From: Eledone cirrhosa
Taxonomy: Eukaryota
Assembly (NCBI GenBank): GCA_964016885.1
Contig: OZ024740.1
Location: forward strand, 19,220,001 to 19,284,000
DNA: 64,000 nucleotides
Direction: 5' to 3'
A program made the position numbers and the translations under genes. The stretch's first letter is position 1, and the number at the start of each line of letters is the position of its first letter. A model generated the notes under the pieces. That model worked only from the letters and a program-made list of their open reading frames with translations, did not search any database and was not told the DNA's origin. Of the stretch, positions 1-60,781 are shown one piece after another.

Positions 1-3000
1 TTACCACCAACACTACATTACCACAAACACTACCTTACCACCAACACTGTCTTACCACCAACATTACCTTACCACCAACACTATCTTACCACCAACACTA
101 TCTTACCACCAACTCTATCTTACCACCAACACTACATTACCACAAACACTACCTTACCACCAACACTATCTTACCACCAACACTACCTTAAGACCAACAC
201 TACCTTACCACCAACACTGTCTTACCACCAACACTACCTTACCACCAACACTGTCTTACCACCAACACTAACTTACCACCAACACTGTCTTACCACAAAA
301 ACTACCTTACCACCAACACTATCTTACCACCAACACTACCTTAAGACCAACACTACCTTACCACCAACACTGTCTTACCACCAACACTAACTTACCACCA
401 ACACTGTCTTGCCACGAACACTACCTTACCACCAACACTACCTTACCACCAACACTGTCTTACCACAAACACTACCTTACCACCAACACTATCTTACCAC
501 CAACACTACCTTACCACCAACACTACCTTACCACCAACACTAACTTACCACCAACACTAACCTACCACCAACACTACCTTACCACCAACACTGTCTTACC
601 ACCAACACTACATTACCACCAACACTAGCTTACCACCAACACTACCTTACCACCAACACTGACTTACCACCAACATTACCTTACCACCAACACTATCTTA
701 CCACCAACACTAGCTTACCACCAACACTATCTTACCACCAATTCTATCTTACCACCAACACTACCTTACCACCAACACTACCTTACCACCAACACTACCT
801 TACCACCAACACTAACTTACCACCAACACTGTCTTACCACGAACACTACCTTACCAGCAACACTATCTTACCACCAACACTACCTTACCAACAACACTAC
901 CTTACCACCAACACTACCTTACCACAAACACTACCTTACCACCAACACTATCTTACCACCAACACTACCTTACCACCAACACTGTCTGACCACAAACACT
1001 GTCTTACCACGAACACTACCTTACCACCCACACTATCTTACCACCAACACTACCTTACCACCAACACTATCTTACCACCAACACTACCTTACCACCAACA
1101 CTACCTTACCACCAACACTAACTTACCACCAACACTAACCTACCAAAAACACTACCTTACCACCAACACTGTCTTACCACCAACACTACATTACCACGAA
1201 CACTAGCTTACCACCAACACTACCTTACCACCAACACTGTCTTACCACCAACATTACCTTACCACCAACACTATCTTACCACCAACACTACCTTACCACC
1301 AACACTATCTTACCACCAACTCTATCTTACCACCAACACAACATTACCACAAACACTACCTTACCACCAACACTGTCTTACCACCAACATTACCTTACCA
1401 CCAACACTATCTTACCACCAACACTACCTTACCACCAACACTATCTTACCACCAACTCTATCTTACCACCAACACTACATTACCACAAACACTACCTTAC
1501 CACCAACACTATCTTACCACCAACACTACCTTAAGACCAACACTACCTTACCACCAACACTGTCTTACCACCAACACTACCTTACCACCAACACTACCTT
1601 ACCACCAACACTACCTTACCAGCAACACTACCTTACCACCAACACTACCTTACACCAACACTACCTTATCACAAACACTACTTTACCACCAACACTATCT
1701 TACCACCAACACTACCTTACCACCAACACTATCTTACCACTAACACTATCTTACCACCAACACTATCTTACCACCAACACTACCTTAAAACCAACACTAC
1801 CATACCACCAACACTACCTTAACACACACACTACATTACCACCTACACTACCTTACCACCAACACTGTCTTACCACAAACACTACCTTACCTCCAACACT
1901 GTCTTACCACCAACACTATATTACCACCAACACTACATTAACACCTACACTACCTTACCACCAACACTACCTACCACCAACACTACCTTACCACGAACAC
2001 TATCTTACCACCAACATTGTCTTAAAACCAACACTACCTTACCACCAACACTACCTTACCACCAACACTAAATTCCCCCTACACTACCTTACCACCAACA
2101 CTATCTTACCACCAACACAACCTTACCACCAACACTACCTTTCCATCATCACTAACTTACAACCAACACTATCTTACCACGAACACTGTCTTATCACCAA
2201 CACTAACTTACCAGCAACAGAACCTTACCACCAACACTACCTTACCACCAACACAACCTTACCAACAAACTACCTTACCACCTACACTAGCATACCACGA
2301 ACACTATCTTACCACCATCAGTACCTTACCACCAACACTAGCTTACCACCAACTCTACCTTACCACCAACACTATCTTACCACTAACACTATCTTAACAC
2401 CAACACTACCTGACCACCAACACTGTCTTACCACCAACACTACCTTACCACCAACACTACCTTATCACAAACACTACTTTACCACCAACACTATCTTACC
2501 ACTAAAACTACCTTACCACCAACGCTATCTTACCACCAACACTATCTTACCACTAACACTACCTTACCACCAACGCTATCTTACCACCAACACTGTCTTA
2601 CCACCAACACTAACTTACCACCAACACTGTCTTACCACCAACACTACCTTACCACCAACACTGTCTTACCACAAACACTACCTTACCACCAACACTATCT
2701 TACCACCAACACTATCTTACCACCAACACTACCATACCACCAACACTGTTTAACCACCAACACTGTCTTACCACCAACACTACCTTACCACCAACACTAT
2801 CTTACCACCAACACTGTTTAACCACCAACACTACCTACCACCAACACTACCTTACCACCAACACTAGCTTACCACCAACACTACCTTACCACCAACACTG
2901 TCTTACCACCAACATTACCTTACCACCAACACTATCTTACCACCAACACTACCTTACCACCAACACTATCTTACCACCAACTCTATCTTACCACCGACAC

Positions 3001-6000
3001 AACATTACCACAAACACTACCTTACCACCAACACTGTCTTACCACCAACATTACCTTACCACCAACACTATCTTACCACCAACACTACCTTACCACCAAC
3101 ACTATCTTACCACCAACTCTATCTTACCACCAACACTACATTACCACAAACACTACCTTACCACCAACACTATCTTACCACCAACACTACCTTAAGACCA
3201 ACACTACCTTACCACCAACACTGTCTTACCACTAACACTACCTTACCACCAACACTACCTTACCACCAACACTACCTTACCAGCAACACTACCTTACCAC
3301 CAACACTACCTTACACCAACACTACCTTATCACAAACACTACTTTACCACCAACACTATCTTACCACCAACACTACCTTACCACCAACACTATCTTACCA
3401 CTAACACTATCTTACCACCAACACTATCTTACCACCAACACTACCTTAAAACCAACACTACCATACCACCAACACTACCTTAACACACACACTACATTAC
3501 CACCTACACTACATTACCACCAACACTGTCTTACCACCAACACTACCTCACCACCAACACTGTCTTACCACCAACACTATATTACCACCAACACTACATT
3601 AACACCTACACTACCTTACCACCAACACTACCTACCACCAACACTACCTTACCACGAACACTATCTTACCACCAACATTGTCTTAAAACCAACACTACCT
3701 TACCACCAACACTACCTTACCACCAACACTAAATTCCCACCTACACTACCTTACCACCAACACTATCTTACCACCAACACAACCTTACCACCAACACTAC
3801 CTTTCCATCATCACTAACTTACAACCAACACTATCTTACCACGAACACTGTCTTATCACCAACACTAACTTACCAGCAACAGAACCTTACCACCAACACT
3901 ACCTTACCACCAACACAACCTTACCAACAAACTACCTTACCACCTACACTAGCATACCACGAACACTATCTTACCACCATCAGTACCTTACCACCAACAC
4001 TAGCTTACCACCAACTCTACCTTACCACCAACACTATCTTACCACTAACACTATCTTAACACCAACACTACCTGACCACCAACACCGTCTTACCACCAAC
4101 ACTACCTTACCACCAACACTACCTTATCACAAACACTACTTTACCACCAACACTATCTTACCACTAACACTACCTTACCACCAACGCTATCTTACCACCA
4201 ACACTATCTTACCACTAACACTACCTTACCACCAACGCTATCTTACCACCAACACTGTCTTACCACCAACACTAACTTACCACCAACACTGTCTTACCAC
4301 CAACACTACCTTACCACCAACACTGTCTTACCACAAACACTACCTTACCACCAACACTATCTTACCACCAACACTATCTTACCACCAACACTACCATACC
4401 ACCAACACTGTTTAACCACCAACACTGTCTTACCACCAACACTACCTTACCACCAACACTATCTTACCACCAACACTGTTTAACCACCAACACTACCTAC
4501 CACCAACACTACCTTACCACCAACACTAGCTTACCACCAACACTACCTTACCACCAACACTGTCTTACCACCAACATTACCTTACCACCAACACTATCTT
4601 ACCACCAACACTACCTTACCACCAACACTATCTTACCACCAACTCTATCTTACCACCAACCCTACATTACCACAAACACTACCTTACCACCAACACTATC
4701 ATGCCACCAACTCTATCTTACCACCAACACTACATTACCACAAACACTACCTTACCACCAACACTGTCTTACCACCAACATTACCTTACCACCAACACTA
4801 TCTTACCACCAACACTATCTTACCACCAACTCTATCTTACCACCAACACTACATTACCACAAACACTACCTTACCACCAACACTATCTTACCACCAACAC
4901 TACCTTAAGACCAACACTACCTTACCACCAACACTGTCTTACCACCAACACTACCTTACCACCAACACTGTCTTACCACCAACACTAACTTACCACCAAC
5001 ACTGTCTTACCACAAAAACTACCTTACCACCAACACTATCTTACCACCAACACTACCTTAAGACCAACACTACCTTACCACCAACACTGTCTTACCACCA
5101 ACACTAACTTACCACCAACACTGTCTTGCCACCAACACTACCTTACCACCAACACTACCTTACCACCAACACTGTCTTACCACAAACACTACCTTACCAC
5201 CAACACTATCTTACCACCAACACTACCTTACCACCAACACTACCTTACCACCAACACTAACTTACCACCAACACTAACCTACCACCAACACTACCTTACC
5301 ACCAACACTGTCTTACCACCAACACTACATTACCACCAACACTAGCTTACCACCAACACTACCTTACCACCAACACTGACTTACCACCAACATTACCTTA
5401 CCACCAACACTATCTTACCACCAACACTAGCTTACCACCAACACTATCTTACCACCAATTCTATCTTACCACCAACACTACCTTACCACCAACACTACCT
5501 TACCACCAACACTACCTTACCACCAACACTAACTTACCACCAACACTGTCTTACCACGAACACTACCTTACCAGCAACACTATCTTACCACCAACACTAC
5601 CTTACCAACAACACTACCTTACCACCAACACTACCTTACCACAAACACTACCTTACCACCAACACTATCTCACCACCAACACTACCTTACCACCAACACT
5701 GTCTGACCACAAACACTGTCTTACCACGAACACTACCTTACCACCCACACTATCTTACCACCAACACTACCTTACCACCAACACTATCTTACCACCAACA
5801 CTATCTTACCACCAACACTACCTTACCACCAACACTACCTTACCACCAACACTAACTTACCACCAACACTAACCTACCACCAACACTACCTTACCACCAA
5901 CACTGTCTTACCACCAACACTACATTACCACCAACACTAGCTTACCACCAACACTACCTTACCACCAACACTGTCTTACCACCAACATTACCTTACCACC

Positions 6001-9000
6001 AACACTATCTTACCACCAACACTACCTTACCACCAACACTATCTTACCACCAACACTATCTTACCACCAACTCTATCTTACCACCAACACAACATTACCA
6101 CAAACACTACCTTACCACCAACACTGTCTTACCACCAACATTACCTTACCACCAACACTATCTTACCACCAACACTACCTTACCACCAACACTATCTTAC
6201 CACCAACTCTATCTTACCACCAACACTACATTACCACAAACACTACCTTACCACCAACACTATCTTACCACCAACACTACCTTAAGACCAACACTACCTT
6301 ACCACCAACACTGTCTTACCACCAACACTACCTTACCACCAACACTACCTTACCACCAACACTACCTTACCAGCAACACTACCTTACCACCAACACTACC
6401 TTACACCAACACTACCTTATCACAAACACTACTTTACCACCAACACTATCTTACCACCAACACTACCTTACCACCAACACTATCTTACCACTAACACTAT
6501 CTTACCACCAACACTATCTTACCACCAACACTACCTTAAAACCAACACTACCATACCACCAACACTACCTTAACACACACACTACATTACCACCTACACT
6601 ACCTTACCACCAACACTGTCTTACCACAAACACTACCTTACCTCCAACACTGTCTTACCACCAACACTATATTACCACCAACACTACATTAACACCTACA
6701 CTACCTTACCACCAACACTACCTACCACCAACACTACCTTACCACGAACACTATCTTACCACCAACATTGTCTTAAAACCAACACTACCTTACCACCAAC
6801 ACTACCTTACCACCAACACTAAATTCCCACCTACACTACCTTACCACCAACACTATCTTACCACCAACACAACCTTACCACCAACACTACCTTTCCATCA
6901 TCACTAACTTACAACCAACACTATCTTACCACGAACACTGTCTTATCACCAACACTAACTTACCAGCAACAGAACCTTACCACCAACACTACCTTACCAC
7001 CAACACAACCTTACCAACAAACTACCTTACCACCTACACTAGCATACCACGAACACTATCTTACCACCATCAGTACCTTACCACCAACACTAGCTTACCA
7101 CCAACTCTACCTTACCACCAACACTATCTTACCACTAACACTATCTTAACACCAACACTACCTGACCACCAACACTGTCTTACCACCAACACTACCTTAC
7201 CACCAACACTACCTTATCACAAACACTACTTTACCACCAACACTATCTTACCACTAACACTACCTTACCACCAACGCTATCTTACCACCAACACTATCTT
7301 ACCACTAACACTACCTTACCACCAACGCTATCTTACCACCAACACTGTCTTACCACCAACACTAACTTACCACCAACACTGTCTTACCACCAACACTACC
7401 TTACCACCAACACTGTCTTACCACAAACACTACCTTACCACCAACACTATCTTACCACCAACACTATCTTACCACCAACACTACCATACCACCAACACTG
7501 TTTAACCACCAACACTGTCTTACCACCAACACTACCTTACCACCAACACTATCTTACCACCAACACTGTTTAACCACCAACACTACCTACCACCAACACT
7601 ACCTTACCACCAACACTAGCTTACCACCAACACTACCTTACCACCAACACTGTCTTACCACCAACATTACCTTACCACCAACACTATCTTACCACCAACA
7701 CTACCTTACCACCAACACTATCTTACCACCAACTCTATCTTACCACCAACCCTACATTACCACAAACACTACCTTACCACCAACACTATCATGCCACCAA
7801 CTCTATCTTACCACCAACACTACATTACCACAAACACTACCTTACCACCAACACTGTCTTACCACCAACATTACCTTACCACCAACACTATCTTACCACC
7901 AACACTATCTTACCACCAACTCTATCTTACCACCAACACTACATTACCACAAACACTACCTTACCACCAACACTATCTTACCACCAACACTACCTTAAGA
8001 CCAACACTACCTTACCACCAACACTGTCTTACCACCAACACTACCTTACCACCAACACTGTCTTACCACCAACACTAACTTACCACCAACACTGTCTTAC
8101 CACAAAAACTACCTTACCACCAACACTATCTTACCACCAACACTACCTTAAGACCAACACTACCTTACCACCAACACTGTCTTACCACCAACACTAACTT
8201 ACCACCAACACTGTCTTGCCACCAACACTACCTTACCACCAACACTACCTTACCACCAACACTGTCTTACCACAAACACTACCTTACCACCAACACTATC
8301 TTACCACCAACACTACCTTACCACCAACACTACCTTACCACCAACACTAACTTACCACCAACACTAACCTACCACCAACACTACCTTACCACCAACACTG
8401 TCTTACCACCAACACTACATTACCACCAACACTAGCTTACCACCAACACTACCTTACCACCAACACTGACTTACCACCAACATTACCTTACCACCAACAC
8501 TATCTTACCACCAACACTAGCTTACCACCAACACTATCTTACCACCAATTCTATCTTACCACCAACACTACCTTACCACCAACACTACCTTACCACCAAC
8601 ACTACCTTACCACCAACACTAACTTACCACCAACACTGTCTTACCACGAACACTACCTTACCAGCAACACTATCTTACCACCAACACTACCTTACCAACA
8701 ACACTACCTTACCACCAACACTACCTTACCACAAACACTACCTTACCACCAACACTATCTTACCACCAACACTACCTTACCACCAACACTGTCTGACCAC
8801 AAACACTGTCTTACCACGAACACTACCTTACCACCCACACTAGCTTACCACGAACACTACCTTACCACCAACACTGTCTTACCACCAACATTACCTTACC
8901 ACCAACACTATCTTACCACCAACACTGTCTTACCACCAACATTACCTTACCACCAACACTATCTTACCACCAACACTACCTTACCACCAACACTATCTTA

Positions 9001-41502: not shown

Positions 41503-43768
41503 TGTGTTGGTGGTAAGACAGTGTTGGTGGTAAGTTAGTGTTGATGGTAAGGTGGTGTTTGTGGTAAGATAGTGTTGGTGGTAAGGTAGTGTTTGTAGTA
41601 AGATAGTGTGGTGGTAAGGTAGTGTTTGTGGTAAGGTAGTGTTTGTGGTAAGATAGAGTTGGTGGTAAGATAGTGTTGGTGGTAAGATAGTGTTGGTGGT
41701 AAGGTAGTGTTGGTGGTAAGGTAGTGTTAGTGGTAAGGTAGTGTTGTTGGTAAGATAGTGTTGGTGGTAAGATAGTGTTGGTGGTAAGGTAGTGTTGGTC
41801 TTAAAGTAGTGTTGGTGGTAATGTAGTGTTGGTGGTAAGGTAGTGTTGGTGCTAAGACAGTGTTGGTGGTAAGACAGTGTTGGTGGTGAGACAGTGTTGG
41901 TGGTAAGACAGTGTTGGTGGTAAGGTAGTGTTGGTGGTAAGACAGTGTTGGTGGTAAGGTAGTGTTGGTGGTAAGGTAGTGTTTGTGGTAAGACAGTGTT
42001 GGTGGTAAGGTAGTGTTGGTGATAACGTAGGGTTGGTGGTAAGGTAGTGTTTGTGGTAAGACAGTGTTGGTGGTAAGGTAGTGTTGGTGGTAAGGTAGTG
42101 TTGGTGGTAAGACTGTGTTGGTGGTAAGACAGTGTTGGTGGTAAGTTAGTGTTGATGGTAAGGTAGTGTTTGTGGTAAGATAGTGTTGGTGGTAAGGTAG
42201 TGTTTGTGGTAAGCTAGTGTTGGTGGTAAGGTAGTGTTTGTGGTAAGGTAGTGTTTGTGGTAAGATAGAGTTGGTGGTAAGATAGTGTTGGTGGTAAGGT
42301 AGTGTTGGTGGTAAGGTAGTGTTAGTGGTAAGGTAGTGTTGGTGGTAAGATAGTGTTGGTGGTAAGATAGTGTTGGTGGTAAGGTAGTGTTGGTCTTAAA
42401 GTAGTGTTGGTGGTAATGTAGTGTTGGTGGTAAGGTAGTGTTGGTGCTAAGACAGTGTTGGTGGTAAGACAGTGTTGGTGGTAAGACAGTGTTGGTGGTA
42501 AGATAATGTTGGTGGTAAGGTAGTGTTGGTGGTAAGACAGTGTTGGTGGTAAGGTAGAGTTGGTGGTAAGGTAGTGTTGGTGGTAAGGTAGTGTTGGTGG
42601 TAAGACAGTGTTGGTGGCAAGGTAGTGTTGGTGGTAAGATAGTGTTGGTGGTAAGGTAGTGTTGGTGGTAAGATAGTGTTGGTGGTAAGGTAGTGTTGGT
42701 GGTAAGATAATGTTGGTGGTAAGGTAGTGTTGGTCTTAAATTAGTGTTGGTGGTAATGTAGTGTTGGTGGTAAGGTAGTGTTGGTGGTAAGGTAGTGTTG
42801 GTGGTAAGACAGTGTTGGTGGTAAGGTAGTGTTGGTGGTAAGACAGTGTTGGTGGTAAGATAGTGTTGGTGGTAAGGTAGTGTTGGTGGTAAGACAGTGT
42901 TGGTGGTAAGGTAGTGTTGGTGGTAAGACAGTGTCGGTGGTAAGGTAGTGTTTATGGTAAGGTAGTGTTGGTGGTAAGATAATGTTGGTGGTAAGGTAGT
43001 GTTGGTCTTAAAGTAGTGTTGGTGGTAATGTAGTGTTGGTGGTAAGGTAGTGTTGGTGGTAAGACAGTGTCGGTGGTAAGGTAGTGTTGGTGATAAGTTA
43101 GTGTTGGTGGTAAGGTAGTGTTGGTGGTAAGACAGTGTTGGGGGTAAGTTAGGGTTGATGGTAAGTTAGTGTTTATGGTAAGATAGTGTTGGTGGTAAGG
43201 TAGTGTTTGTTGTAGGATAGTGTTGGTGGTAAGGTAGTGCTGGTGGTAAGGTAGTGTTGGTGGTAAGGTAGTGTTGGTGGTAAGGTAGTGTTGGTGGTAA
43301 GACAGTGTTGGTGATAAGACAGTGTTGGTGGTAAGGTAGTGTTTTTGGTAAGATAGTGTTGGTGGTAAGGTAGTGTTGGTGGTAAGACAGTGTTGGTGGT
43401 AAGGTAGTGTTGGTGGTAAGACAGTGTCGGTGGTAAGGTAGTGTTTATGGTAAGATAGTGTTGGTGGTAAGGTAGTGTTTGTGGTAAGATAGTGTTGCTG
43501 ATAAGGTAGTGTTTGTGGTAAGGTATTTTTGGTGGTAAGACAGTGTCGGTGGTAAGGTAGTGTTTGTGGTAAGACAGTGTCGGTGGTAAGGTAGTGTTGG
43601 TGGTAAGACAGTGTTGGTGGTAAGGTAGTGTTGGTGGTAAGGTAGTGTTGGTGGTAAGGTAGTGTTGGTGGTAAGACAGTGTCGGTGGTAAGGTAGTGTT
43701 TATGGTAAGATAGTGTTGCTGATAAGGTAGTGTTTGTGGTAAGGTAGTGTTGGTGGTAAGACAGTGTT
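41503..43768 (-). repeat. Satellite I, inverted block (~133 monomers, reads GGTAAGGTAGTGTTGGT on +)
   Basis: Abrupt switch at ...cactaccttacc|tgtgttggtggtaag...; ends at ...acagtgtt|aacggcccg; internal ~0.6-kb duplication (41502 vs 42113). Confidence 0.97.
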
Positions 43769-44055
43769 AACGGCCCGAGTGATTGGGCCTTCTCTGTTTA
43801 TAAGCCTGTAGGTTGAGGAAGAGAGCAAAAGGAAGAAAGGAGCACTTGCACAACACGCTCCTCGAGTTGAGGGTTGTTCTATCGACGGGGTATTAAACAA
43901 CCCATTTGTGGCGCCTCCCTCCTATTGGGGATTTCGATTGTTGAAATTGTTTTTTTTTATATTTTTTACACGACTATGTAAAATCCCCGGCATGTCTTTG
44001 TATTGTCCCCTTTCTTGTTGCACGCTTGTGGCTAATAAAGAAATCTATCTATCTA
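43769..44055 (+). mobile_element. 3' terminal stub (~290 bp) of a Tx1/L1-clade non-LTR retrotransposon
   Basis: Near-identical to 46500-46784 (about 5 substitutions and one 2-bp indel by eye); last ORF codons, 3' UTR, AATAAA at 44034-44039, (TCTA)3 tail. Confidence 0.93.
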
Positions 44056-44061
44056 TTTTGA

Positions 44062-46784
44062 CGCAACGCAGCTAGAGTGTTAGCGTCGAGAACGGCACTG
44101 GACCAGTTCTTCGATGCGAAACACAAAGGCTGCGTGGTCAGAAGCAAAACACGTGCTCTAGGAAACGAAGGAGCGAAAGCTGTCAGCTGGGCCCGAGTGG
44201 CGGAGGCAAAAAGTGGCAACAAGTCCACGATTCAGTCTTTGAAAGACCAAAACGGACGCGTGCTACTTGACCCCAAGCAAATGTGCGCGGCCTTTCAGCG
44301 GCACTTTGCGCGACTGTTTGAGCAGAACGACGGTGAGCCGAACGGGGAAATGGACTTTAGTTCATACCTCGACGGCCTGCCGCGTCTCTCAAACACGGAG
44401 GCCGAGTTCTGCGAAAGACCGATCACGGACACTGAGATACGGGACGCTCTGGGCCGCTGCGGGAAACGCAAGTCACCCGGTCTAGATGGTCTACCCTACG
44501 AATTTTACATAGGCATGCCGGACTTGTTCTCTGGCGTCCTCGAAGCCGTCTACTGCAATTGGCAGCAGAACGGGAGAATTCCCAGTTCTGCAGGCAAGGG
44601 CGTAGTAACGCTGATCAGGAAAGACGAGAACAAGGGGGACGAAATTAACAACTTCAGGCCCATAAGTCTGCTCAACACAGAGTTAAAGATTTTGGCCAAG
44701 GTGCTAGCGACGAGGTTGGCGCTTGTCGTCGAGAACCTGGTAGGGAAAGCGCAAACGTGTGCAATCCCGACCAGGTCCATACACGACAACCTCCACCTCA
44801 TGCGATACATCATAGAGAGGGTGGGTAGTAAACCCGGCGTCGGTGGGGCTCTGATCAACTTGGATCAGTCTAAGGCATTCGATAGGGTCGACCATCGATA
44901 CTTGGAAGCGGTTCTCAAGGCGGCCGGTTTCGGTCCCGTATTCAGAGGATGGATCGAGGCGATGCACACCAGCATCTGCTCGAGGGTCAAGGTGAACGGC
45001 TACCTATCGGAGCCGTTCGCAATCACGCGTTCTATTCGACAAGGATGCCCTCTCTCCTCCATTCTGTATGTATTGACTCTAGAGCCACTACTGCGGAAAT
45101 TGGAGCTGTTGCAGGGCATCCCCCTAGAACTGGGACTGCGCAAAGCGGCGTCGGCTTATGCCGACGACGTGACAGTAATGGTGTCGAGCACCTCGGAAAT
45201 CGGGGTGATCGGCAACATACTGAAAGAATACGAAACGCTGACGGGAGCAAAACTAAACCCAGACAAGTCTGTCGGTTTGCAACTCGGTACGTGGAGAGGC
45301 AAACCGATGACATCCGACAGCGTCGTTGGACGCTGGACGGACGGACCGGTGAAATTGCTCGGGGTCTGGTTCAGTCCAGACCTCCAGGTGGAGAAAAACT
45401 GGAACGAGGTCACGGCCAAGGTGTTTGCACTCACTCAGAAGTGGGCAGAGTGCAAACTGTCCTTGAAAGGTCGAGCAGAGGTGGCGAACACTTTCATAGC
45501 GTCCGTCATCTATTACCGCTTGACTGTCGTGCCTTGTCCCCGTGAACACCTCGCTAAGATGGAACGCATGCTCTTCCAGTTTCTGTGGAAGAAGCAGGCT
45601 CCGCTGGTGAGGAGATCCGTCTGCTGTCAGCACCCTTCCAACGGAGGGCTGGGAATGCCGTGGCTGATGATGCGCAAACATGCGCTGAGGCTGCGGCATC
45701 TCCAGGTATTCCTCACCGACCCCCAACCGGTGTGGGCACCGGTTGTGAGACAGGCTTTCCCACAGCTCGTCTCGCTGACGGAGCTGCAGTCCTGGGTGAA
45801 GAAAAGACCGAAAACGATGGGCGCCTGGCACATTGAATGCGCTCAGGCGCTCACAGTCCTCTGGCAAGCGGGCGCAGCAATCAGTGGAGACTCCACTTCG
45901 ACATTCTATAGAGGGATTGTACGTTACAAGGGCGACGACGTGCTCGGAGAGACTCTGGGCGTCGAAGACGATGAGCTCACCAGTATGTTTGGTAGGACTT
46001 TCCGCCCGGGACCTATGGACAACTTCCAGAGGTCCCTGGCCTGGCAGTGCTACCGAGGAGCTCTACCGGTTCGTGACAAGATCTACAGGCACGGACGCCC
46101 TGGCAGCGATCCTTCCAAGAGGACGTGTCCAAGATGTGCGCAGGACATTGAAACAGTTCTGCACGCAATTGTACACTGCCCGGGCGTAAGCGACCTGTGG
46201 AACTATGCAGAACAACTGCTGTCGCATATGGGACAAATACAGTTGACTGCCGAGTCCATAGTAAGGATCAAACCGCCAGACTCTTTCAAAAACGAAAGAG
46301 AGGCGGTTTTCCTCTGTACGGTGGCTATGGTGAAAGAAGTTATATGGTGGACGAGGTTGAGAGGACTGAGGACAGATGCCTTTCTCTCCGGACAACAATT
46401 GATTCCCTTCTTTAAGTATCACTTTAGAAGGAGAATCAGGGTGGAGAGAGAGGCACTGCACCCCAGTAAATTTACTGAAAGGTGGGTGAATGAAGCGAAA
46501 ATGGCCCGAGTGATTGGGCCTTCTCTGTTTATAAGCCTGTAGGTTGAGGAAGAGAGCAAAAGGAAGAAAGGAGCACTTGCACAACACGCTCCTCGAGTTG
46601 AGGGTTGTTCTATCGACGGGGTATTAAACAACCCATTTGTGGCGCCTCCCTCCTATTGGGGATTTCAATTGTTGAAATTGTTTGTTTTTATATTTTTTAC
46701 ACGACTGTATGTAAAATCCCCGGCATGTCTTTGTATTGTCCCCTTTCTTGTTGCGCCCTTGTGGCTAATAAAGAAATCTATCTA
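44062..46784 (+). mobile_element. 5'-truncated Tx1/L1-clade LINE, young copy (RT + C-terminal zinc knuckle; endonuclease and ORF1 missing)
   Basis: Uninterrupted ORF2 fragment, 3' UTR, AATAAA at 46767-46772, (TCTA)2 tail; flanked by TTTTGACGCA (44056-44065) and TTTTGTCGCA (46785-46794). Confidence 0.93.
44077..46542 (+). CDS. Non-LTR retrotransposon ORF2 fragment (reverse transcriptase), Tx1/L1 type; N-terminally truncated, frame open from 44062
   Basis: Motifs KSPGLDGLPYEFY, NFRPISLLNTELKILAK, LDQSKAFDRVDH, IRQGCPLS, YADD (45157-45168), LSLKGR, GGLGMP, CCHC knuckle CPRCAQDIETVLHAIVHC; no APE domain. Confidence 0.92.
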   Translation: MLASRTALDQFFDAKHKGCVVRSKTRALGNEGAKAVSWARVAEAKSGNKSTIQSLKDQNGRVLLDPKQMCAAFQRHFARLFEQNDGEPNGEMDFSSYLDGLPRLSNTEAEFCERPITDTEIRDALGRCGKRKSPGLDGLPYEFYIGMPDLFSGVLEAVYCNWQQNGRIPSSAGKGVVTLIRKDENKGDEINNFRPISLLNTELKILAKVLATRLALVVENLVGKAQTCAIPTRSIHDNLHLMRYIIERVGSKPGVGGALINLDQSKAFDRVDHRYLEAVLKAAGFGPVFRGWIEAMHTSICSRVKVNGYLSEPFAITRSIRQGCPLSSILYVLTLEPLLRKLELLQGIPLELGLRKAASAYADDVTVMVSSTSEIGVIGNILKEYETLTGAKLNPDKSVGLQLGTWRGKPMTSDSVVGRWTDGPVKLLGVWFSPDLQVEKNWNEVTAKVFALTQKWAECKLSLKGRAEVANTFIASVIYYRLTVVPCPREHLAKMERMLFQFLWKKQAPLVRRSVCCQHPSNGGLGMPWLMMRKHALRLRHLQVFLTDPQPVWAPVVRQAFPQLVSLTELQSWVKKRPKTMGAWHIECAQALTVLWQAGAAISGDSTSTFYRGIVRYKGDDVLGETLGVEDDELTSMFGRTFRPGPMDNFQRSLAWQCYRGALPVRDKIYRHGRPGSDPSKRTCPRCAQDIETVLHAIVHCPGVSDLWNYAEQLLSHMGQIQLTAESIVRIKPPDSFKNEREAVFLCTVAMVKEVIWWTRLRGLRTDAFLSGQQLIPFFKYHFRRRIRVEREALHPSKFTERWVNEAKMARVIGPSLFISL

Positions 46785-46845
46785 TTTTGTCGCACTGAAA
46801 TACTCCCTGGTCGTCCGTTACAAATAATATCACACAAATACCACA

Positions 46846-46950
46846 AGCCGATGAGTTGACAGAGGTATTCGTTCCAGTTCACTGTGTTCTGAGTTCAAAT
46901 CCCACCGTGGTCAATTTTACTGTTTATCCTTTTGTGATCAATTAAAGTAC
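46846..46950 (+). mobile_element. Degenerate, 3'-truncated tRNA-derived SINE (same family as 55388 and 59482)
   Basis: B-box-like GAGTTCAAATCC at 46891-46902; aligns with the 59482 copy through ...atcctt...tc(a/g)at...taaagtac, then is replaced by satellite II. Confidence 0.75.
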
Positions 46951-49900
46951 TTACGTCCAGTACTTACATCCAGATCTTACGTCCTGTACTTACGTCCTGT
47001 ACTTACGTCCTGTACTTACGCCCTGTACTTACGTTCAGCACTTACGTCCTGTACTTACGTCCAGTACTTACGTCCTGTACTTACGTCCTGTACTTAAGTC
47101 CTGTACTTACGTCCTGTACTTACGTCCAGTACTTACGTCCAGTACTTACGTCCAGCACTTACGTCCTGTACTTACGTCCTGTACTTACGTCCTGTACGTA
47201 CGTCCAGCACTTACGTCCTGTACTTACGTCCAGTACTTACGTCCAGTACTTATGTCCAGTACTTACGTCCAGTACTTACGTCCAGTACTTACGTCCAGCA
47301 CTTACGTCGAGTACTTACGTCCAGTACTTACGTCCAGCACTTACATCCAGTAATTAAGTCCAGTACTTAAGTCCAGTACTTACGTCCAGTACTTACGTCC
47401 TGTACTTACGTCCTGTACTTACGTCCAGCACTTACCTCCAGAACTTACGTCCAGAACTTACGTCCAGCACTTACGTCCAGTACTTACGTCCAGCACTTAC
47501 GTCCAGTAATTAAGTCCAGTACTTACGTCCAGTACTAACGTCCTGTACTTACGTCCTGTACTTACGTCCAGCACTTACGGCCTGTACTTACGTCCAGCAC
47601 TTACGTCCAGCACTTACGTCCAGTACTTACGTCCAGTACTTACGTGCAGCACTTACGTCCAGTACTTACGTCCAGTACTTACGTCCAGTACTTACGTCCT
47701 GTACTTACGTGCAGCACTTACGTCCTGTACTTAGTCCAGCACTTACATCCAGCACTTACGTCCTGTACTTACGTCCAGTACTTACGGCCAGAACATACGT
47801 CCAGTAATTACGTCCAGTTCTTACGTCCAGCCCTTACGTCCAGTAATTAAGTCCAGTACTTAAGTCCAGTACTTACACCCAGTACTTACGTCCTGTACTT
47901 ATGTCCTGTACTTACGTCCAGTACTTACGTCCAGTACTTACGTCCAGTACTTACGTCCTGTACTTACGTCCAGAACTTCCGTCCTGTACTTACGTCCTGT
48001 AATTACGTCCAGTAATTAAGTCCAGTACTTAAGTCCAGTACTTCCGTCCAGCACTTACGTCCTGTACTTACGTCCAGCACTTACGTCCAGTACTTACGTC
48101 CAGAACTTACGTCCAGCACTTACGTCCTGTACTTACGCCCAGTACTTACGTCCAGAACTTACGTCCAGTACTTACGTCCAGCACTTACATCCTGTACTTA
48201 CGGCCAGTACTTACGTCCAGTACTTACGTCCAGCACTTACGTCCAGCACTTACGTCCAGTAATTAAGTCCAGTACTTAAGTCCAGTACTTACATCCAGCA
48301 CTTACGTCCAGCACTTACGTCCAGTACTTACGTCCAGTACTTACGTGCAGCACTTACGTCCAGAAATTAAGTCCAGTACTTAAGTCCAGCACTTACGTCC
48401 TGTACTTATGCCCAGTACTTACGTCCAGCACTTACGTTCTGTACTTACGTCGAGCACTTACGTCCAGAACTTACGTCCAGTACTTACGTCCAGTGCTTAC
48501 GTCCAGCACTTACGTCCAGTACTTACGTCCTGTAATTACGTCCTGCACTTACGTCCAGTACTTACGTCCAGTACTTACGTCCTGTACTTACGTCCTGTAC
48601 TTACGCCCAGCACTTACGTCCTGTACTTACGTCCAGCACTTACGTCAAGTACTTACGTCCAGAACTTACGTCCAGCACTTACGTCCTGTACTTGCGCCCA
48701 GTACTTACGTCCAGAACTTACGTTCAGTACTTACGTCCTGTACTTACGTCCTGTACTTACGTCCAGCACTTACCTCCAGAGCTTACGTCCAGAACTTACG
48801 TCCAGCACTTACGTCCAGTACTTACGTCCAGCACTTACGTCCAGTAATTAAGTCCAGTACTTACGTCCAGTACTTACGTCCAGTACTAACGTCCTGTACT
48901 TACGTCCTGTACTTACGTCCAGCACTTACGTCCAGCACTTACGTCCAGCACTTACGTCCAGTACTTACGTCCAGTACTTACGTGCAGTACTTACGTGCAG
49001 CACTTACGTCCAGTACTTACGTCCAGTACTTACGTCCAGTACTTACGTCCTGTACTTACGTGCAGCACTTACGTCCTGTACTTAGTCCAGCACTTACGTC
49101 CAGCACTTACGTCCTGTACTTACGTCCAGCACTTACGGCCAGAACATACGTCCAGTAATTACGTCCAGTTCTTACGTCCAGCCCTTACGTCCAGTAATTA
49201 AGTCCAGTACTTAAGTCCAGTACTTACACCCAGTACTTACGTCCTGTACTTATGTCCTGTACTTACGTCCAGTACTTACGTCCAGTACTTACGTCCAGTA
49301 CTTACGTCCTGTACTTACGTCCAGAACTTCCGTCCTGTACTTACGTCCTGTAATTACGTCCAGTAATTAAGTCCAGTACTTAAGTCCAGTACTTCCGTCC
49401 AGCACTTACGTCCTGTACTTACGTCCAGCACTTACGTCCAGTACTTACGTCCAGAACTTACGTCCAGCACTTACGTCCTGTACTTACGCCCAGTACTTAC
49501 GTCCAGAACTTACGTCCAGTACTTACGTCCAGCACTTACATCCTGTACTTACGGCCAGTACTTACGTCCAGTACTTACGTCCAGCACTTACGTCCAGCAC
49601 TTACGTCCAGTAATTAAGTCCAGTACTTAAGTCCAGTACTTACATCCAGTACTTACGTCCTGTACTTATGTCCTGTACTTACGTCCAGCACTTACGTCCT
49701 GTACTTACGTCCAGTACTTACGTCCAGTAATTCAATCCAGCACTTAAGTCCAGTACTTACGTCCAGTACTTACGTCCAGCACTTACGTCCAGAAATTAAG
49801 TCCAGTACTTAAGTCCAGCACTTACGTCCTGTACTTATGCCCAGTACTTACGTCCAGCACTTACGTTCTGTACTTACGTCGAGCACTTACGTCCAGAACT

Positions 49901-52900
49901 TACGTCCAGTACTTACGTCCAGTGCTTACGTCCAGCACTTACGTCCAGTACTTACGTCCTGTAATTACGTCCTGCACTTACGTCCAGTACTTACGTCCAG
50001 TACTTACGTCCTGTACTTACGTCCTGTACTTACGCCCAGCACTTACGTCCTGTACTTACGTCCAGCACTTACGTCAAGTACTTACGTCCAGAACTTACGT
50101 CCAGCACTTACGTCCTGTACTTGCGCCCAGTACTTACGTCCAGAACTTACGTTCAGTACTTACGTCCTGTAATTACGTCCTGTACTTACGTCCAGTACTT
50201 ACGTCAAGTACTTACGTCCTGTACTTACGTCCGGTACTTACGTCCAGTACTTACGTCGTGTACTTACGTCCAGCACTTACGTCCAGTACTTACGTCCAGT
50301 GCTTACGTCCAGAACTTCCTTCCAGTACTTACGTCCTGTAATTACGTCCAGTAATTAAGTCCAGTACTTAAGTCCAGTACTTAAGTCCAGTACTTCCGTC
50401 CAGCACTTACGTCCTGTACTTACGTCCAGCACTTACGTCCAGTACTTACGTCCAGTACTTACGTCCAGCACTTACATCCAGTAATTATGTCCAGTACTTA
50501 AGTCCAGTACTTACGTCCAGTACTTACGTCCTGTACTTACGTCCTGTACTTACGTCCAGCACTTACGTCCTGTACCTACGTCCAGCACTTACGTCCAGTA
50601 CTTACGTCCAGTACTTACGTCCAGTATTTACGTCCAGTACTTACGTCCAGTACTTACGTCCAGTACTTACGTCCAATACTTACGTCCAGTACTTACGTCC
50701 AGTACTTACGTCCAGTAATTAAGACAGTACTTAAGTCCAGTACTTACGTCCAGTACTTACGTCCAGTACTTACGTGCAGCACTTACGTCCAGTACTTACG
50801 TCCAGTACTTACGTCCAGTACTTACGTCCTGTACTTACGTGCAGCACTTACGTCCTGTACTTAGTCCAGCACTTACGTCCAGCACTTACGTCCTGTACTT
50901 ACGTCCAGCACTTACGGCCAGAACATACGTCCAGTAATTACGTCCAGTTCTTACGTCCAGCCCTTACGTCCAGTAATTAAGTCCAGTACTTAAGTCCAGT
51001 ACTTACACCCAGTACTTACGTCCTGTACTTATGTCCTGTACTTACGTCCAGTACTTACGTCCAGTACTTACGTCCAGTACTTACGTCCTGTACTTACGTC
51101 CAGAACTTCCGTCCTGTACTTACGTCCTGTAATTACGTCCAGTAATTAAGTCCAGTACTTCAGTCCAGTACTTCCGTCCAGCACTTACGTCCTGTACTTA
51201 CGTCCAGCACTTACGTCCAGTACTTACGTCCAGAACTTACGTCCAGCACTTACGTCCTGTACTTACGCCCAGTACTTACGTCCAGAACTTACGTCCAGTA
51301 CTTACGTCCAGCACTTACATCCTGTACTTACGGCCAGTACTTACGTCCAGTACTTACGTCCAGCACTTACGTCCAGCACTTACGTCCAGTAATTAAGTCC
51401 AGTACTTAAGTCCAGTACTTACATCCAGTACTTACGTCCTGTACTTATGTCCTGTACTTACGTCCAGCACTTACGTCCTGTACTTACGTCCAGTACTTAC
51501 GTCCAGTAATTCAATCCAGCACTTAAGTCCAGTACTTACGTCCAGTACTTACGTCCAGCACTTACGTCCAGAAATTAAGTCCAGTACTTAAGTCCAGCAC
51601 TTACGTCCTGTACTTATGCCCAGTACTTACGTCCAGCACTTACGTTCTGTACTTACGTCGAGCACTTACGTCCAGAACTTACGTCCAGTACTTACGTCCA
51701 GTGCTTACGTCCAGCACTTACGTCCAGTACTTACGTCCTGTAATTACGTCCTGCACTTACGTCCAGTACTTACGTCCAGTACTTACGTCCTGTACTTACG
51801 TCCTGTACTTACGCCCAGCACTTACGTCCTGTACTTACGTCCAGCACTTACGTCAAGTACTTACGTCCAGAACTTACGTCCAGCACTTACGTCCTGTACT
51901 TGCGCCCAGTACTTACGTCCAGAACTTACGTTCAGTACTTACGTCCTGTAATTACGTCCTGTACTTACGTCCAGTACTTACGTCAAGTACTTACGTCCTG
52001 TACTTACGTCCGGTACTTACGTCCAGTACTTACGTCGTGTACTTACGTCCAGCACTTACGTCCAGTACTTACGTCCAGTGCTTACGTCCAGAACTTCCTT
52101 CCAGTACTTACGTCCTGTAATTACGTCCAGTAATTAAGTCCAGTACTTAAGTCCAGTACTTCCGTCCAGCACTTACGTCCTGTACTTACGTCCAGCACTT
52201 ACGTCCAGTACTTACGTCCAGTACTTACGTCCAGCACTTACATCCAGTAATTATGTCCAGTACTTAAGTCCAGTACTTACGTCCAGTACTTACGTCCTGT
52301 ACTTACGTCCTGTACTTACGTCCAGCACTTACGTCCTGTACCTACGTCCAGCACTTACGTCCAGTACTTACGTCCAGTACTTACGTCCAGTATTTACGTC
52401 CAGTACTTACGTCCAGTACTTACGTCCAGTACTTACGTCCAGTACTTACGTCCAATACTTACGTCCAGTACTTACGTCCAGTACTTACGTCCAGTAATTA
52501 AGACAGTACTTAAGTCCAGTACTTACGTCCAGTACTTAAGTCCAATACTTACGTCCAGTACTTACGTCCAGCACTTACGTCCAGTATTTACGTCAAATAC
52601 TTACGTCCAGTACTTACGTCCAGTACTTACGTCCAGTACTTACGCCCAGTACTTACGTCCAGAACTTACGTCCAGTACTTACGTCCTGTAATTACGTCCT
52701 GTACTTACGTCCAGTACTTACGTCCAGTACTTACGTCCAGTACTTACGTCCTGTACTTACGTCCAGCACTTACGTCTAGCACTTACGTCCTGTACTTACG
52801 TCCAGTACTTACGTCCAGTAATTATATCCAGCACTTAAGTCCAGTACTTACGTCCAGTACTTACGTCCAGCACTTACGTCCAGAAATTAAGTCCAGTACT

Positions 52901-54904
52901 TAAGTCTATCACTTACGTCCTGTACTTATGCCCAGTACTTACGTCCAGCACTTACGTTCTGTACTTACGTCGAGCACTTACGTCCAGAACTTACGTCCAG
53001 TACTTACGTCCAGTACTTACGTCGAGCACTTTCGTCGAGCACTTACGTCCAGTACTTACGTCCAGTACTTACGTGCAATACTTACGTTCAGAACTTACGT
53101 CCAGTACTTACGTCCTGTACTTACGTCCAGTACTTACGTCCTGTACTTACGTCCAGTACTTACGTCCAGAACTTACGTCCAGCACTTACGTCCTGTACTT
53201 ACGCCCAGTACTTACGTCCAGAACTTACGTCCAGTACTTACGTCCTGTAATTACGTCCTGTACTTACGTCCAGTATTTACGTCCAGTACTTACGTCCAGT
53301 ACTTACGTCCTGTACTTACGTCCAGCACTTACGTCCAACACTTACGTCCAGCACTTACGTCCAGTACTTACGTCCAGTACTTACGTCCAGTTCTTACGTC
53401 CAGTACTTACTCCAGCACTTACATCCTGTACTTACGTCCTGTACTTACGTCTTGTACTTACGTCCAGCACTTACGTCCAGTACTTACGTCCAGTACTTAC
53501 ATCTTGTACATACGTCCAGCACTTACGTCCTGTACTTACGTCCTGTACTTACGTCCAGCACTTACGTCCAGTACTTACGTACAGTACTTACGTCCAGCAC
53601 ATAAGTCCAGTACTTACGTCCAGTACTTACGTCCAGAACTTACGTCCAGTACTTACGTCCAGCACTTACATCCAGTAATTATGTCCAGTACTTAAGTCCA
53701 GTACTTACATCCAGTACTTACGTCCTGTATTTACGTCCTGTACTTACGTCCAGCACTTACGTCCTGTACCTACGTCCAGCACTTACGTCCAGCACTTACG
53801 TCCAGTACTTACGTCCAGTACTTACGTCCAGTATTTACGTTCAGTACTTACGTCCAGTACTTACGTCCAGTACTTACGTCCTGTACTTACGTCCAGTACA
53901 TACGTCCAGTACTTACGTCCAGTACTTACGTCCAATACTTACGTCCAGTACTTACGTCCAGTACTTACGTTCAGTACTTACGTCCAGTACTTACGTCCAG
54001 CACTTACGTCCAGTAATTAAGACAGTACTTAAGTCCAGTACTTACGTCCAGTACTTAAGTCCAATACTTACGTCCAGTACTTACGTCCAGCACTTACGTC
54101 CAGTATTTACGTCAAATACTTACGTCCAGTACTTACGTCCAGTACTTACGTCCTGTACTTACGTCCAGTACTTACGTCCAGTACTTACGTACAGCGTTTA
54201 CGTCCAGCACTTACGTCTAGCACTTAGGTCCTGTACTTACGTCCAGTACTTACGTCCAGTAATTAAATCCAGCACTTAAGTCCAGTACTTACGTCCAGTA
54301 CTTACGTCCAGCACTTACGTCCAGAAATTAAGTCCAGTACTTAAGTCCAGCACTTACGTCCTGTACTTATACCCAGTACTTATGTCCAGCACTTACGTTC
54401 TGTACTTACGTCGAGCACTTACGTCCAGAACTTACGTCCAGTACTTACGTCCAGTGCTTACGTCCAGCACTTACGTCCAGTACTTACGTCCTGTAATTAC
54501 GTCCTGCACTTACGTCCAGTACTTACGTCCAGTACTTACGTCCTGTACTTACGTCCTGTACTTACGCCCAGCACTTACGTCCTGTACTTACGTCCAGCAC
54601 TTACGTCCTGTACTTACGTCCAGCACTTACGTCAAGTACTTACGTCCAGAACTTACGTCCAGCACTTACGTCCTGTACTTACGCCCAGTACTTACGTCCA
54701 GAACTTACGTTCAGTACTTACGTCCTGTACTTACGCACAGTACTTACGTCCAGTACTTACGTCTAGTACTTACGTCCAGTACTTACGTCCAGTACTTAAG
54801 TCCAGTACTTACGTCCAGTACTTACGTCTTGTACTTACGTCCTGTACTTCGTCCTGTACTTACGTCCAGTAATTAAGTCCAGTACTTACGTCCAGTACTT
54901 ACGT
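46947..54904 (+). repeat. Satellite II: 13-bp tandem repeat TACTTACGTCCAG (variants CCTG, CAGCAC, TAATTAAG), roughly 610 monomers with ~1.3-1.8 kb higher-order repeats
   Basis: 13-nt periodicity; 13-aa period in spurious ORFs; identical ORFs recur 1779 bp apart (48995/50774, 49837/51616). Confidence 0.98.
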
Positions 54905-54960
54905 TCTCCCTTTCTCTCTCTCCCCCTTCCCCTTCCCTCTCTCTCTCTATCTATCTCTTC
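54905..54960. repeat. Polypyrimidine (CT)-rich low-complexity tract
   Basis: ttctccctttctctctctcccccttccccttccctctctctctctatctatctc. Confidence 0.85.
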
Positions 54961-55043
54961 TTAGCTCTATACAGACTAGAGAGTGTTTAAAATACTCAAC
55001 ACTCAGTACTGAGCACTCAATGCTATACTCAATGCTATATATC

Positions 55044-55190
55044 GTGAAAGCGCATGGCTTAGGGGTTAGAGCATTGGGCTTGCAATCGAAAGGTTGTGAT
55101 TTCAATTCTAAGACCGGGTGATGTGTTGTGTCCTTGAGCAAGACACTTTATTTCACGTTGCTCCAGTTTACTCAGGTGTAGAAATGAGAT
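55044..55190 (+). mobile_element. tRNA-derived CORE-SINE (resembles octopus OR2 type)
   Basis: tRNA-like head (TGGCTTAGGGGTTAGAGC A box; GATTTCAATTC degenerate B box) followed by TGTGTCCTTGAGCAAGACACTT...CAGTTTACTCAGGTGTAGAAATG, matching the MIR/CORE domain pattern. Confidence 0.75.
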
Positions 55191-55387
55191 GATAGGACTG
55201 GGATCCATATCATTAAATTACTCAAGACACCTCCAACGAGATATACCTTGGCGGAGGCCAGCTAAACCTACGTAGGTGTGAGCTGTCACAACAACAACAT
55301 ACTATATATTACGACTGCTCCCCCTCTACAACGATGTTAGGAGTTGAAGGATAATGGTTGAAATATCTTAGTATCGTTATTTTTTTA

Positions 55388-55602
55388 GGATTGACATTAT
55401 CGGCAGAATGTCGGACACCGTGCTTTGCAGCATTAAGTTATAGCCCTTTACGTTCTCAGTTCAAATCCCGCCGAGGTTAACTTTACCTTTCATCCTTCAG
55501 GGTCGATAAAATAAAGTACCAGTAACACACTGGGGTCAATTTAATCGACTTTCCCCTCCCCTTCAAATTGCTGGACTTCTGCCTATTGTAGAAACAATTA
55601 TT
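55388..55602 (+). mobile_element. tRNA-derived SINE with conserved central domain CCTTTCATCCTT..GGTCGATAAAAT.AGTACCAG
   Basis: B box CAGTTCAAATCC; colinear with the copy at 59482-59675; AT-rich end GTAGAAACAATTATT. Confidence 0.82.
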
Positions 55603-55615
55603 CTTGTCTTTGTAG

Positions 55616-55808
55616 GCAACGACAGAAATATCTGGATGTGGTCAATGACAAACTGACCAGTCAAATGAAACAAATGACTAAAGTTGAGGAGGACAGAATA
55701 GCAAAAGCGGCTGAAGAGAAAGAAGCAGCGAGGTTGAAGCTCGAGGAAGAGAAGAGGAAACATCGCGAAAAAACTACTGAAGAAATCGCAGCTAGTAGAA
55801 AGTCTCAG
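55616..55808 (+). CDS. Internal coding exon (193 bp, phase 2 in / phase 0 out) of a charged coiled-coil protein, CFAP210/CCDC173-like (trichohyalin-plectin-homology type)
   Basis: Acceptor ttcttgtctttgtag|G and donor CAG|gtaagat; open frame QRQKYLDVVNDKLTSQMKQMTKVEEDRIAKAAEEKEAARLKLEEEKRKHREKTTEEIAASRKSQ; purine-rich; spacing N.L...K....E..IA...E.EA...K.E.EK.........IA..R recalls CCDC173 (from memory, not searched). Confidence 0.8.
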
Positions 55809-55820
55809 GTAAGATGAACA

Positions 55821-56445
<625 letters not shown>

Positions 56446-57220
56446 GGTGCTACTGGTAACATGTAACCCAGTACAAACTGTCGCATGGTCGAGTCGTCGG
56501 CGACTAAAACGGCAACCCCACCAAGTTTACTTGGTGAGGAGGGGCGTTTTGAACACCCTGCAGGACAAAAAACAAAACCTGACAAAGAGCGGAAGAACTC
56601 ATAAGAATCAACGGCCATCCAAAAGTGTGTAAATATGTTTATACACATGTACATATGGATGTATATGTATATGTATATGTGTATATACACGGGTGCATTT
56701 GTGTGTATATGCGCGGGGACATAGAAAAAGTCGGGCTGGATACCCGATCGCGCGGTTAAACAACTGGGAGTGAAGGACCCCTAGCCTTTGTCAGGGCATT
56801 CTTCTAGGAGAAGGCAACTCAGGAAACTGGGATAACTCCGATATAAAACCTGCGCCTCAGTAGTTACCGATGATGTTGATATTTTCTTCTTTTCGGGTTA
56901 TAGCTACTGTCGCTCAGAGAGTGGGATTGGCTCAGTGCACAGTCTTTCCTCACTTAAAAAAATATCTTCACGGACAGGCATTGCACGATATAATTAATTA
57001 ATAATTATTAATAATGGTATATTGTGCAATGGCCACACTCGATAACGAGGGGGCAGCCATCATGTATGTATGTATGTATGTATGTATGTATGTATGTATG
57101 TATGTATGGATGGATGAACAGGTGTATGTATCTATGTATGGATGGATGGATGGATGAACAGATGTATGTATGTATGTATGTATGTATGTATGTATGTATG
57201 TATGTATGTATGTATGTATG
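56446..57220 (+). mobile_element. Non-autonomous bipartite RTE derivative, copy B, with (TATG)n/(TGGA)n tail
   Basis: Starts GTGCTACTGGTAACATGTAACCCAG (shared with copies C and D); CTAGGAGAAGGCAACTC motif; 3' end GTGCAATGGCCACACTCGATAACGAGGGGGCAGCCATC is nearly identical to the RTE end at 61752-61788. Confidence 0.8.
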
Positions 57221-57400
57221 TCGGCTCACTCATGAGTGCTACTGGTAACATGTAACCCAGTGCAACCTGTCGCATGATCGGTGACTAAACCGGCAACCCC
57301 ACCAAGTTTACTTGGTGAGAAGGTTGATTTTGGACACCCTGCAGGACAAAAAGCAAAACCTGACAAAGGGCGGAAGAACTCATAAGAGTGAACGGCCATC
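57221..57400 (+). mobile_element. 5' portion of the same RTE-derived element, copy C
   Basis: Colinear with 56446-56620; ends at AACGGCCATC before a (TA)n tract. Confidence 0.78.
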
Positions 57401-57463
57401 ATATATATATATACATATATATATATAATATATATATATACATATATATATATAATAAATATA
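57401..57463. repeat. (TA)n microsatellite
   Basis: Direct reading. Confidence 0.9.
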
Positions 57464-59296: not shown

Positions 59297-59439
59297 AATA
59301 TTCGATTCGTTTGCAATTATGCAAACAAGCCTCGATTTTAAAGCAATGTCAGTAGAATGAATCCTTCATTCTTGCTCTTGTGTTGGCATGTAAATAAAAA
59401 ATGAGGCTTGTTTGTATAATTGCAAACGAATCAAATGTT
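59297..59439. mobile_element. MITE-like fold-back element with ~43-bp imperfect terminal inverted repeats
   Basis: aatattcgattcgtttgcaattatgcaaacaagcctcgatttt vs reverse complement of aaaatgaggcttgtttgtataattgcaaacgaatcaaatgtt; internal hairpin AGAATGAA-tcc-TTCATTCT. Confidence 0.65.
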
Positions 59440-59481
59440 ATTATTAATATATATATATATATTATTAATATATATATATAA

Positions 59482-59675: not shown

Positions 59676-59867
<192 letters not shown>

Positions 59868-60085: not shown

Positions 60086-60778
<693 letters not shown>

Positions 60779-60781
<3 letters not shown>

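Follow-up and report, generated by a model that had tools for sequence, protein, structure and literature searches.

Several systems are known in which introns are very large or tandem arrays are transcribed. The Drosophila Y-loop genes, which include kl-3, kl-5 and ks-1/ORY, exceed 4 Mb (PMC11207136), are associated with ~90 h of spermatocyte growth and depend on Blanks and Heph (PMC6508621, PMC6508613), and formation of the loops has been ascribed to Y linkage, not to the identity of the gene (PMC6508621). Several introns of more than 100 kb are also described for human dystrophin (PMC11207136). In chicken, a donor-rich transcribed array has been proposed to impair or stall splicing, and C-rich arrays without splice sites do not recruit small nuclear RNAs (bioRxiv 10.64898/2026.03.19.712899). 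We analysed a window of 64,000 bp (the whole stretch of DNA presented here) from Eledone cirrhosa, located at C1:19,220,001-19,284,000, where C1 is contig OZ024740.1 (442.9 Mb) of the 3.0-Gb assembly GCA_964016885.1. The window begins inside CFAP210 (CCDC173) intron 5 and includes its 3' part. We find that this intron is spliced as a unit of 126.8 kb, most of which is satellite, and that it was likely enlarged by two arrays that arose locally, as unrelated arrays did across the surrounding region.

In size class and in its canonical GT-AG ends, the intron is like the dystrophin-type introns above 100 kb (PMC11207136), from which it differs in that 78% of its length consists of tandem arrays. 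As in kl-3, kl-5 and ks-1/ORY, the product is axonemal and a spliced intron is mostly strand-asymmetric tandem repeat. Unlike those genes, which carry simple 5-bp satellites, CFAP210 contains private 13- and 17-mers; unlike the fly Y-loop genes, its flanks are equally array-rich and the dynein genes of the same genome are not giant in the part measured. Satellite forms the majority of the intron, as in gigantism of the Drosophila type, but the scale is 0.127 Mb for the intron and 0.275 Mb for the coding span, compared with more than 4 Mb for the fly genes (PMC11207136). The arrays are also like chicken LL2R and CNM, arrays that are transcribed from one strand and have few polyadenylation signals. 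The sense 17-mer array resembles CNM (C-rich, no splice sites) and an inverted block next to it resembles LL2R (donor-rich), although LL2R is a non-coding unit that starts at a long interspersed nuclear element (LINE) promoter, whereas the array described here lies inside a protein-coding intron (bioRxiv 10.64898/2026.03.19.712899).

Identification of the gene started from the exon that follows the intron, which is preceded by AG and followed by GTAAGA and has 64 open codons after one base that completes an upstream codon. A full HMMER search with the 64-amino acid (aa) exon peptide returned one protein (E 1.8e-5), a CCDC173-like protein of O. sinensis with an O. vulgaris cluster mate; the next match was O. 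bimaculoides CFAP210. Searched against the PDB, the O. sinensis protein matched seven solved chains (E 6e-28 to 4e-8), six of which are named CFAP210, CCDC173 or FAP210. With the peptide alone, the PDB gave one match by sequence (E 0.053), none of 377 longer candidate proteins passed, a Pfam scan found no TPH domain (PF13868) and DUF3298 as sole match (E 0.41), and the ESM Atlas pointed to TPH-bearing clusters, a lead of low recognition value. The O. vulgaris CFAP210 orthologue itself scores 22.4 bits for TPH, where the cut-off is 27, and PF13868 is precomputed in 15 of 15 homologues. Searches with homologous proteins indicated that CFAP210 is one locus in the genome, with eight coding exons at C1:19,050,560-19,325,572. 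The exons are collinear on one strand, all introns are GT-AG and the joined exons encode 491 aa with no internal stops. This product shares 55.8% identity with its O. vulgaris counterpart over 509 columns and 58% with the O. sinensis protein over 350 columns, and its similarity is full-length and collinear, at 55-58% to three Octopus proteins and 32% to a Ptychodera protein. The named proteins closest to it are those of Octopus, in line with an octopod source and with the cephalopod suggested in an earlier note on this DNA. Judged by sequence, the gene is a single-copy CFAP210/CCDC173 orthologue with an intact frame; the earlier note had likened the exon peptide to CFAP210/CCDC173. A further 5' exon may lie upstream of the eight. 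Human CFAP210 binds the lumen of the B-tubule of doublet microtubules, including those of airway cilia (PMC9564825), and is therefore a motile-cilium protein that is not restricted to sperm. For a member of the TPH family of B-tubule microtubule inner proteins (CFAP210/CCDC173/FAP210), the protein is ordinary; the 275-kb span of its gene is unusual.

The size of intron 5 comes from a spliced contig. Four runs of one study cover the exon region at window 55616-55808. A contig of 1,177 nt in run X4 aligns to exactly these positions with 0 mismatches, and the 86-bp exon 5 at C1:19148719-19148804 is matched by the same contig, as judged from its length, its depth and neighbouring positions in the record. 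Beyond the downstream border of exon 5, the unaligned end of the contig continues into window 55617-55646, and on the upstream side the unaligned end corresponds to the end of exon 4; the remainder is consistent with exons 2-8 by length only. Run X4 was taken as RNA solely on account of this contig, and run X1 shows unspliced read-through at both exon borders. A retrocopy as the origin of the spliced contig was rejected, given the one assembly locus and the unspliced X1 sequence across both borders. The junction of exon 5 with exon 6 places intron 5 at C1:19148805-19275615, which is 126,811 bp with GT-AG ends in phase 2, 55,615 bp of it inside the window. A tblastn search of 464 kb with five homologues found no CFAP210 exon in window 1-55615. 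The earlier note had proposed the internal exon, the lack of any candidate exon in the preceding 55.6 kb and a satellite-filled intron of more than 55 kb, and all three are confirmed; the previous exon, which it suggested looking for, was located 126,811 bp upstream on the same contig and strand, joined by the transcript contig. With the thresholds used, no recursive-splice sites (an acceptor followed directly by a donor) were detected in intron 5, splice sites being scored with generic weight matrices made for this analysis.

Tandem Repeats Finder was used to detect arrays, which make up 99,185 of the 126,811 bp of intron 5. The part inside the window includes 51,726 bp of satellite, in agreement with the ~52 kb estimated earlier (coordinates of all features are in Table 1). 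The whole 17-mer array begins 47.5 kb before the window and comprises 88,969 bp, or ~5,240 copies with an 87% match. It consists of local duplications nested in one another, with higher-order offsets of 1.7-10 kb seen as k-mer diagonals; the longest exact duplication is 5,173 bp at an offset of 8,478 (window 13916 and 22394), and 85% of the 1-kb words in the array are unique. Genome-wide exact counts equal the local counts for the 17-mer (299+6 with a pattern of 45 nt and 1,215+30 with one of 22 nt) and for the 13-mer (56+0), indicating that, as far as exact matches go, both monomers are private to intron 5 within the assembly. An origin of the two monomers from dispersed satellites was rejected by the same counts, again for exact matches only.

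Table 1. Features of the window and of neighbouring DNA on C1, with strand and basis or remark.
Feature	Position	Strand	Basis or remark
3' part of CFAP210 intron 5	window 1-55615	+	spliced contig and gene model; window begins 71.2 kb downstream of exon 5 and the donor
Last 41.5 kb of the 17-bp-monomer array, C/A-rich	window 1-41502	+	Tandem Repeats Finder
Inverted 17-mer block, 133 copies, ~2.3 kb	window 41504-43768	-	Tandem Repeats Finder
Extra copy of the 3' end (~290 bp) of the following LINE	window 43769-44056	+	sequence comparison
5'-truncated young LINE, 826-aa open frame	window 44062-46785	+	RVT_1; zf-RVT match below its cut-off
13-bp-monomer array, 7,959 bp, 613 copies	window 46946-54904	+	begins within a repeat resembling a short interspersed nuclear element (SINE)
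Coding exon 6 of 8, CFAP210/CCDC173	window 55616-55808	+	193 bp, entered in phase 2 and left in phase 0
First part of intron 6 (36,503 bp in all, free of arrays of at least 1 kb)	window 55809-64000	+	exon 7 at window +92312
9.6-kb array, 14-31-mer, CFAP210 intron 3	C1:19,096,831-19,106,424		donor-like motifs antisense only
SLC22-like MFS transporter gene	C1:18,777,670-18,836,308	-	homology; 215 kb upstream of CFAP210
Alpha-tubulin gene, convergent with CFAP210, downstream	C1:19,369,963-19,372,209 (L020:5964-8209)	-	

Subtracting the arrays leaves 27.6 kb of intron 5, which is similar to the other CFAP210 introns (9.7, 24.8, 22.7, 40.2, 36.5 and 12.8 kb). Local birth and growth of the two arrays could have proceeded as follows. 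A short seed would have become a monomer in place, the 17-mer from ACC/ACT triplet-like units and the 13-mer from a SINE-like repeat. Blocks of 1.7-10 kb would then have been duplicated locally time after time, for example through unequal exchange or replication slippage, which would have produced the nested higher-order repeats, after which one end of the array would have been inverted and the LINE of Table 1 would have inserted. The growth would have been tolerated, exon 5 still joining exon 6, probably because neither splice sites nor 3'-end sites are predicted on the sense strand of the 89-kb array. The size of intron 5 needs no regulatory role.

That the real intron owes part of its size to the assembly, through wrong collapsing of the array in either direction or through a mis-join where the inversion begins or ends, we consider unlikely. 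The exact 5,173-bp duplication could be a copy made by the assembler, and the evidence for the intron consists of short-read contigs; no read spans the 17-mer array, whose length may therefore be wrong, by the duplicated unit of 8.5 kb at least. Arguing against such an origin, C1:18,915,661-19,518,862, which includes CFAP210, has no N gap (the closest, at C1:18,915,462 and C1:19,518,862, are both outside the gene), the eight exons are collinear on one strand, most 1-kb words in the array are unique, and its monomer has no other locus from which it could have been borrowed. The inverted block and the forward array have 57 of 2,166 100-mers and 0 of 2,116 150-mers in common; hence the block is not a fold-back copy, and a fold-back or mirror artefact at window 41502 was rejected.

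The array load of CFAP210 is matched by its surroundings. In 1,064 kb of contiguous DNA we identified 18 arrays of at least 2 kb, which cover 43.6% of the sequence (39.6% within the CFAP210 gene and 45.0% outside it), the largest being 97.8 kb (cut by the edge), 89.0 kb and 85.0 kb. No recurrent 16-mer was common to the 17 arrays compared over the first 20 kb of each. When 10-kb tiles placed at round coordinates were surveyed, an array of at least 5 kb was present in 11 of 20 tiles at C1:10-29 Mb, compared with 2 of the 20 tiles taken along C1 and 1 of the 19 from other contigs (11/20 versus 3/39, Fisher test, p 1.2e-4). The C1:10-29 Mb tiles have 52% array cover, with a different monomer of 12-124 bp in each. 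The non-ciliary SLC22-like neighbour, labelled from Sugar_tr/MFS matches, one weak PDB match and motifs, contains a 37-mer array of 18.4 kb that separates two exons defined by homology, and another intron of ~27 kb. As controls for gene class, we measured 19 dynein heavy-chain loci, in which DHC_N2 to Dynein_C takes up 36-453 kb (median 110 kb), and the gaps between DHC_N2 exons have a median of 1.2 kb and a maximum of 27 kb (n=68). This survey pooled axonemal and cytoplasmic genes, had the N-terminal tail outside its range and left out the unpaired Dynein_C match C19:6840816; gaps of at least 60 kb would split a locus in the clustering, and whole spans were added on that account. In the TPH-family genes on C6 and C23, no gap between exons exceeds 22 kb. 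In these surveys, arrays are not concentrated in axonemal or fertility genes over their neighbourhood, and satellite load goes with the chromosome region, not the gene class.

With about half of C1:10-29 Mb in arrays and single arrays of up to 85-98 kb, the arrays might instead be structural chromatin (centromere-near or other heterochromatin) that has engulfed the gene. Centromeric satellites usually belong to one shared family, whereas each array here has its own monomer, and this explanation, although compatible with local growth, is in our judgement improbable. At a transcription rate of 2-4 kb/min, intron 5 would be transcribed in ~1 hour, not days. Least probable is a functional satellite intron transcribed in spermatocytes, acting as a timer or ribonucleoprotein scaffold and convergent with kl-3 and kl-5, the parallel that the earlier note had drawn and that these surveys do not support: the axonemal gene, its satellite-filled and spliced intron, the array in a second intron and a predicted double-stranded RNA (dsRNA) stem of 2.3 kb that could bind a dsRNA-binding protein such as fly Blanks (PMC6508613) would suit it, but CFAP210 is at least 15-fold smaller than the fly genes (PMC11207136), shows no array enrichment over its flanks, and is not alone in having an intronic array, the SLC22-like gene having one too; the dynein genes are not giant in the measured part, the TPH-family genes on C6 and C23 have small exon gaps, the fly loops are ascribed to Y linkage and octopus sex chromosomes are reported as ZZ/ZO (PMC10925132).

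The arrays in CFAP210 are polarized with respect to splice signals. In the sense strand of the 89-kb array we counted 0 GTRAG motifs, 0 scored donors, 0 scored acceptors and 0 AWTAAA per kb, and an AG density of 3.8/kb compared with ~50/kb in ordinary intron; its antisense strand has 46 GTRAG/kb. The same holds for the 13-mer array (0 sense versus 61 antisense GTRAG/kb) and the 9.6-kb array of intron 3 (0 versus 42), such that 3 of 3 large CFAP210 arrays have no GTRAG in sense and 42-61/kb in antisense. Donor motifs in sense are present in a block of only 2.3 kb, the inverted one, at ~51 donor-like GTRAG/kb (~116 sites), and there is no acceptor in the 89 kb that precede it. Outside CFAP210, 2 of 14 arrays are rich in GTRAG on either strand. 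Together with the array upstream, the inverted block is predicted to form a stem of 2,265 nt that is 89% matched, and the 600 nt around the joint have a predicted fold of -454 kcal/mol (z -33.7), as any inverted repeat would give. If formed in the nascent transcript, this dsRNA stem would be a possible target of adenosine-to-inosine editing or protein binding. More broadly, C1 may contain a gene-bearing domain of ~20 Mb, half of it arrays of private monomers, that represents early intron gigantism away from any Y chromosome, with splicing as a strand filter and the stem as a possible target of cephalopod editing. We offer this joint proposal tentatively, and with it, at the same level of doubt, the strand filter that forms part of it, by which arrays would grow to 10-90 kb in active genes only with a donor-free RNA strand.

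A number of observations count against local array growth as the explanation of intron 5. Splicing is seen in a single contig of a single run, for which neither kind nor tissue is recorded. The gene takes up 275 kb for 1.5 kb of coding sequence, which would be long even without its arrays, and a large intron size conserved among orthologues, which would be suggestive of function, is possible. On C2, two dynein genes reach 453 and 408 kb, with interiors that lay outside the survey, as did the dynein tails and the one excluded Dynein_C match. The tiles sat at round rather than random coordinates, and the putative exon order of the SLC22-like gene is derived from homology, without RNA support. 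With regard to the strand filter, the ~116 sense donor-like sites of the inverted block coexist with a normal junction, so the filter is not absolute, and the polarity of 3 of 3 arrays is a post hoc observation with a probability of 1 in 8 by chance.

The locus provides, for a mollusc, transcript-backed splicing of a conserved ciliary gene across tandem repeat that totals ~99 kb. With it comes a control that has no fly counterpart, in that satellite introns go with the region and not with gene function, which favours a neutral origin. Since both monomers are private to one intron, a probe for RNA fluorescence in situ hybridization would report a single locus, making transcription of the arrays directly testable. 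The domain, as a patchwork of arrays, offers many independent cases in which a splicing strand filter could be counted, and the patchwork and the possible filter are the leads of greater interest. In the open-access literature, to the extent of the text available from it, we found no description of a satellite-filled intron in a cephalopod or in CFAP210, or of an array domain of the C1:10-29 Mb type; the main text of a recent coleoid genome paper, in the part available, has 0 uses of 'satellite' (PMC13652810).

Other observations concern the remaining repeats of the gene and its relatives. Window 43769-46785, which the earlier note had passed over, is a young LINE copy and not unique DNA. For the LINE at 44062-46785 there are at least 39 further copies that are 99% identical (40 candidates scored of 9,410); two other copies of the family have open frames of at least 1,172 aa in the fetched flank, and another (L188) likewise has a related copy directly behind it. 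Intron 6 contains broken LINE-like fragments and SINE-like repeats at window 57450-59300, 60780-61460 and 62700-64000, as seen by eye and partly by search. Public Octopus gene models disagree at the CFAP210 introns: one stops at exon 6, another is without exon 7, and a third has ~17 additional residues at the joint of exons 5 and 6. These differences probably reflect annotation trouble, and may also reflect skipping of exon 7.

Among the dynein heavy-chain genes, the two longest (C2:188.98-189.43 Mb, 453 kb, and C2:278.26-278.67 Mb, 408 kb) have spans ~4x the median and may hold large introns. Two opposed, head-to-tail copies with identical match scores lie at C19:6.70-6.81 Mb; they arose either by an inverted duplication of recent date or by duplication in the assembly. 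Downstream of CFAP210, the alpha-tubulin gene sits between a 29.5-kb 81-mer array and the 85-kb array, a 48-mer; the N-terminal loop of its product looks divergent. By eye, its likely start codon is without a following GT, so the first exon may be disturbed, and a CCAAT/TATA-like stretch lies between two inverted copies of ~200 bp upstream of its exon 2 (L020:8640-9330). Further along C1, one monomer family fills both C1:19,649,031-19,684,000 and C1:20,000,001-20,010,000, and would extend over more than 360 kb if continuous.

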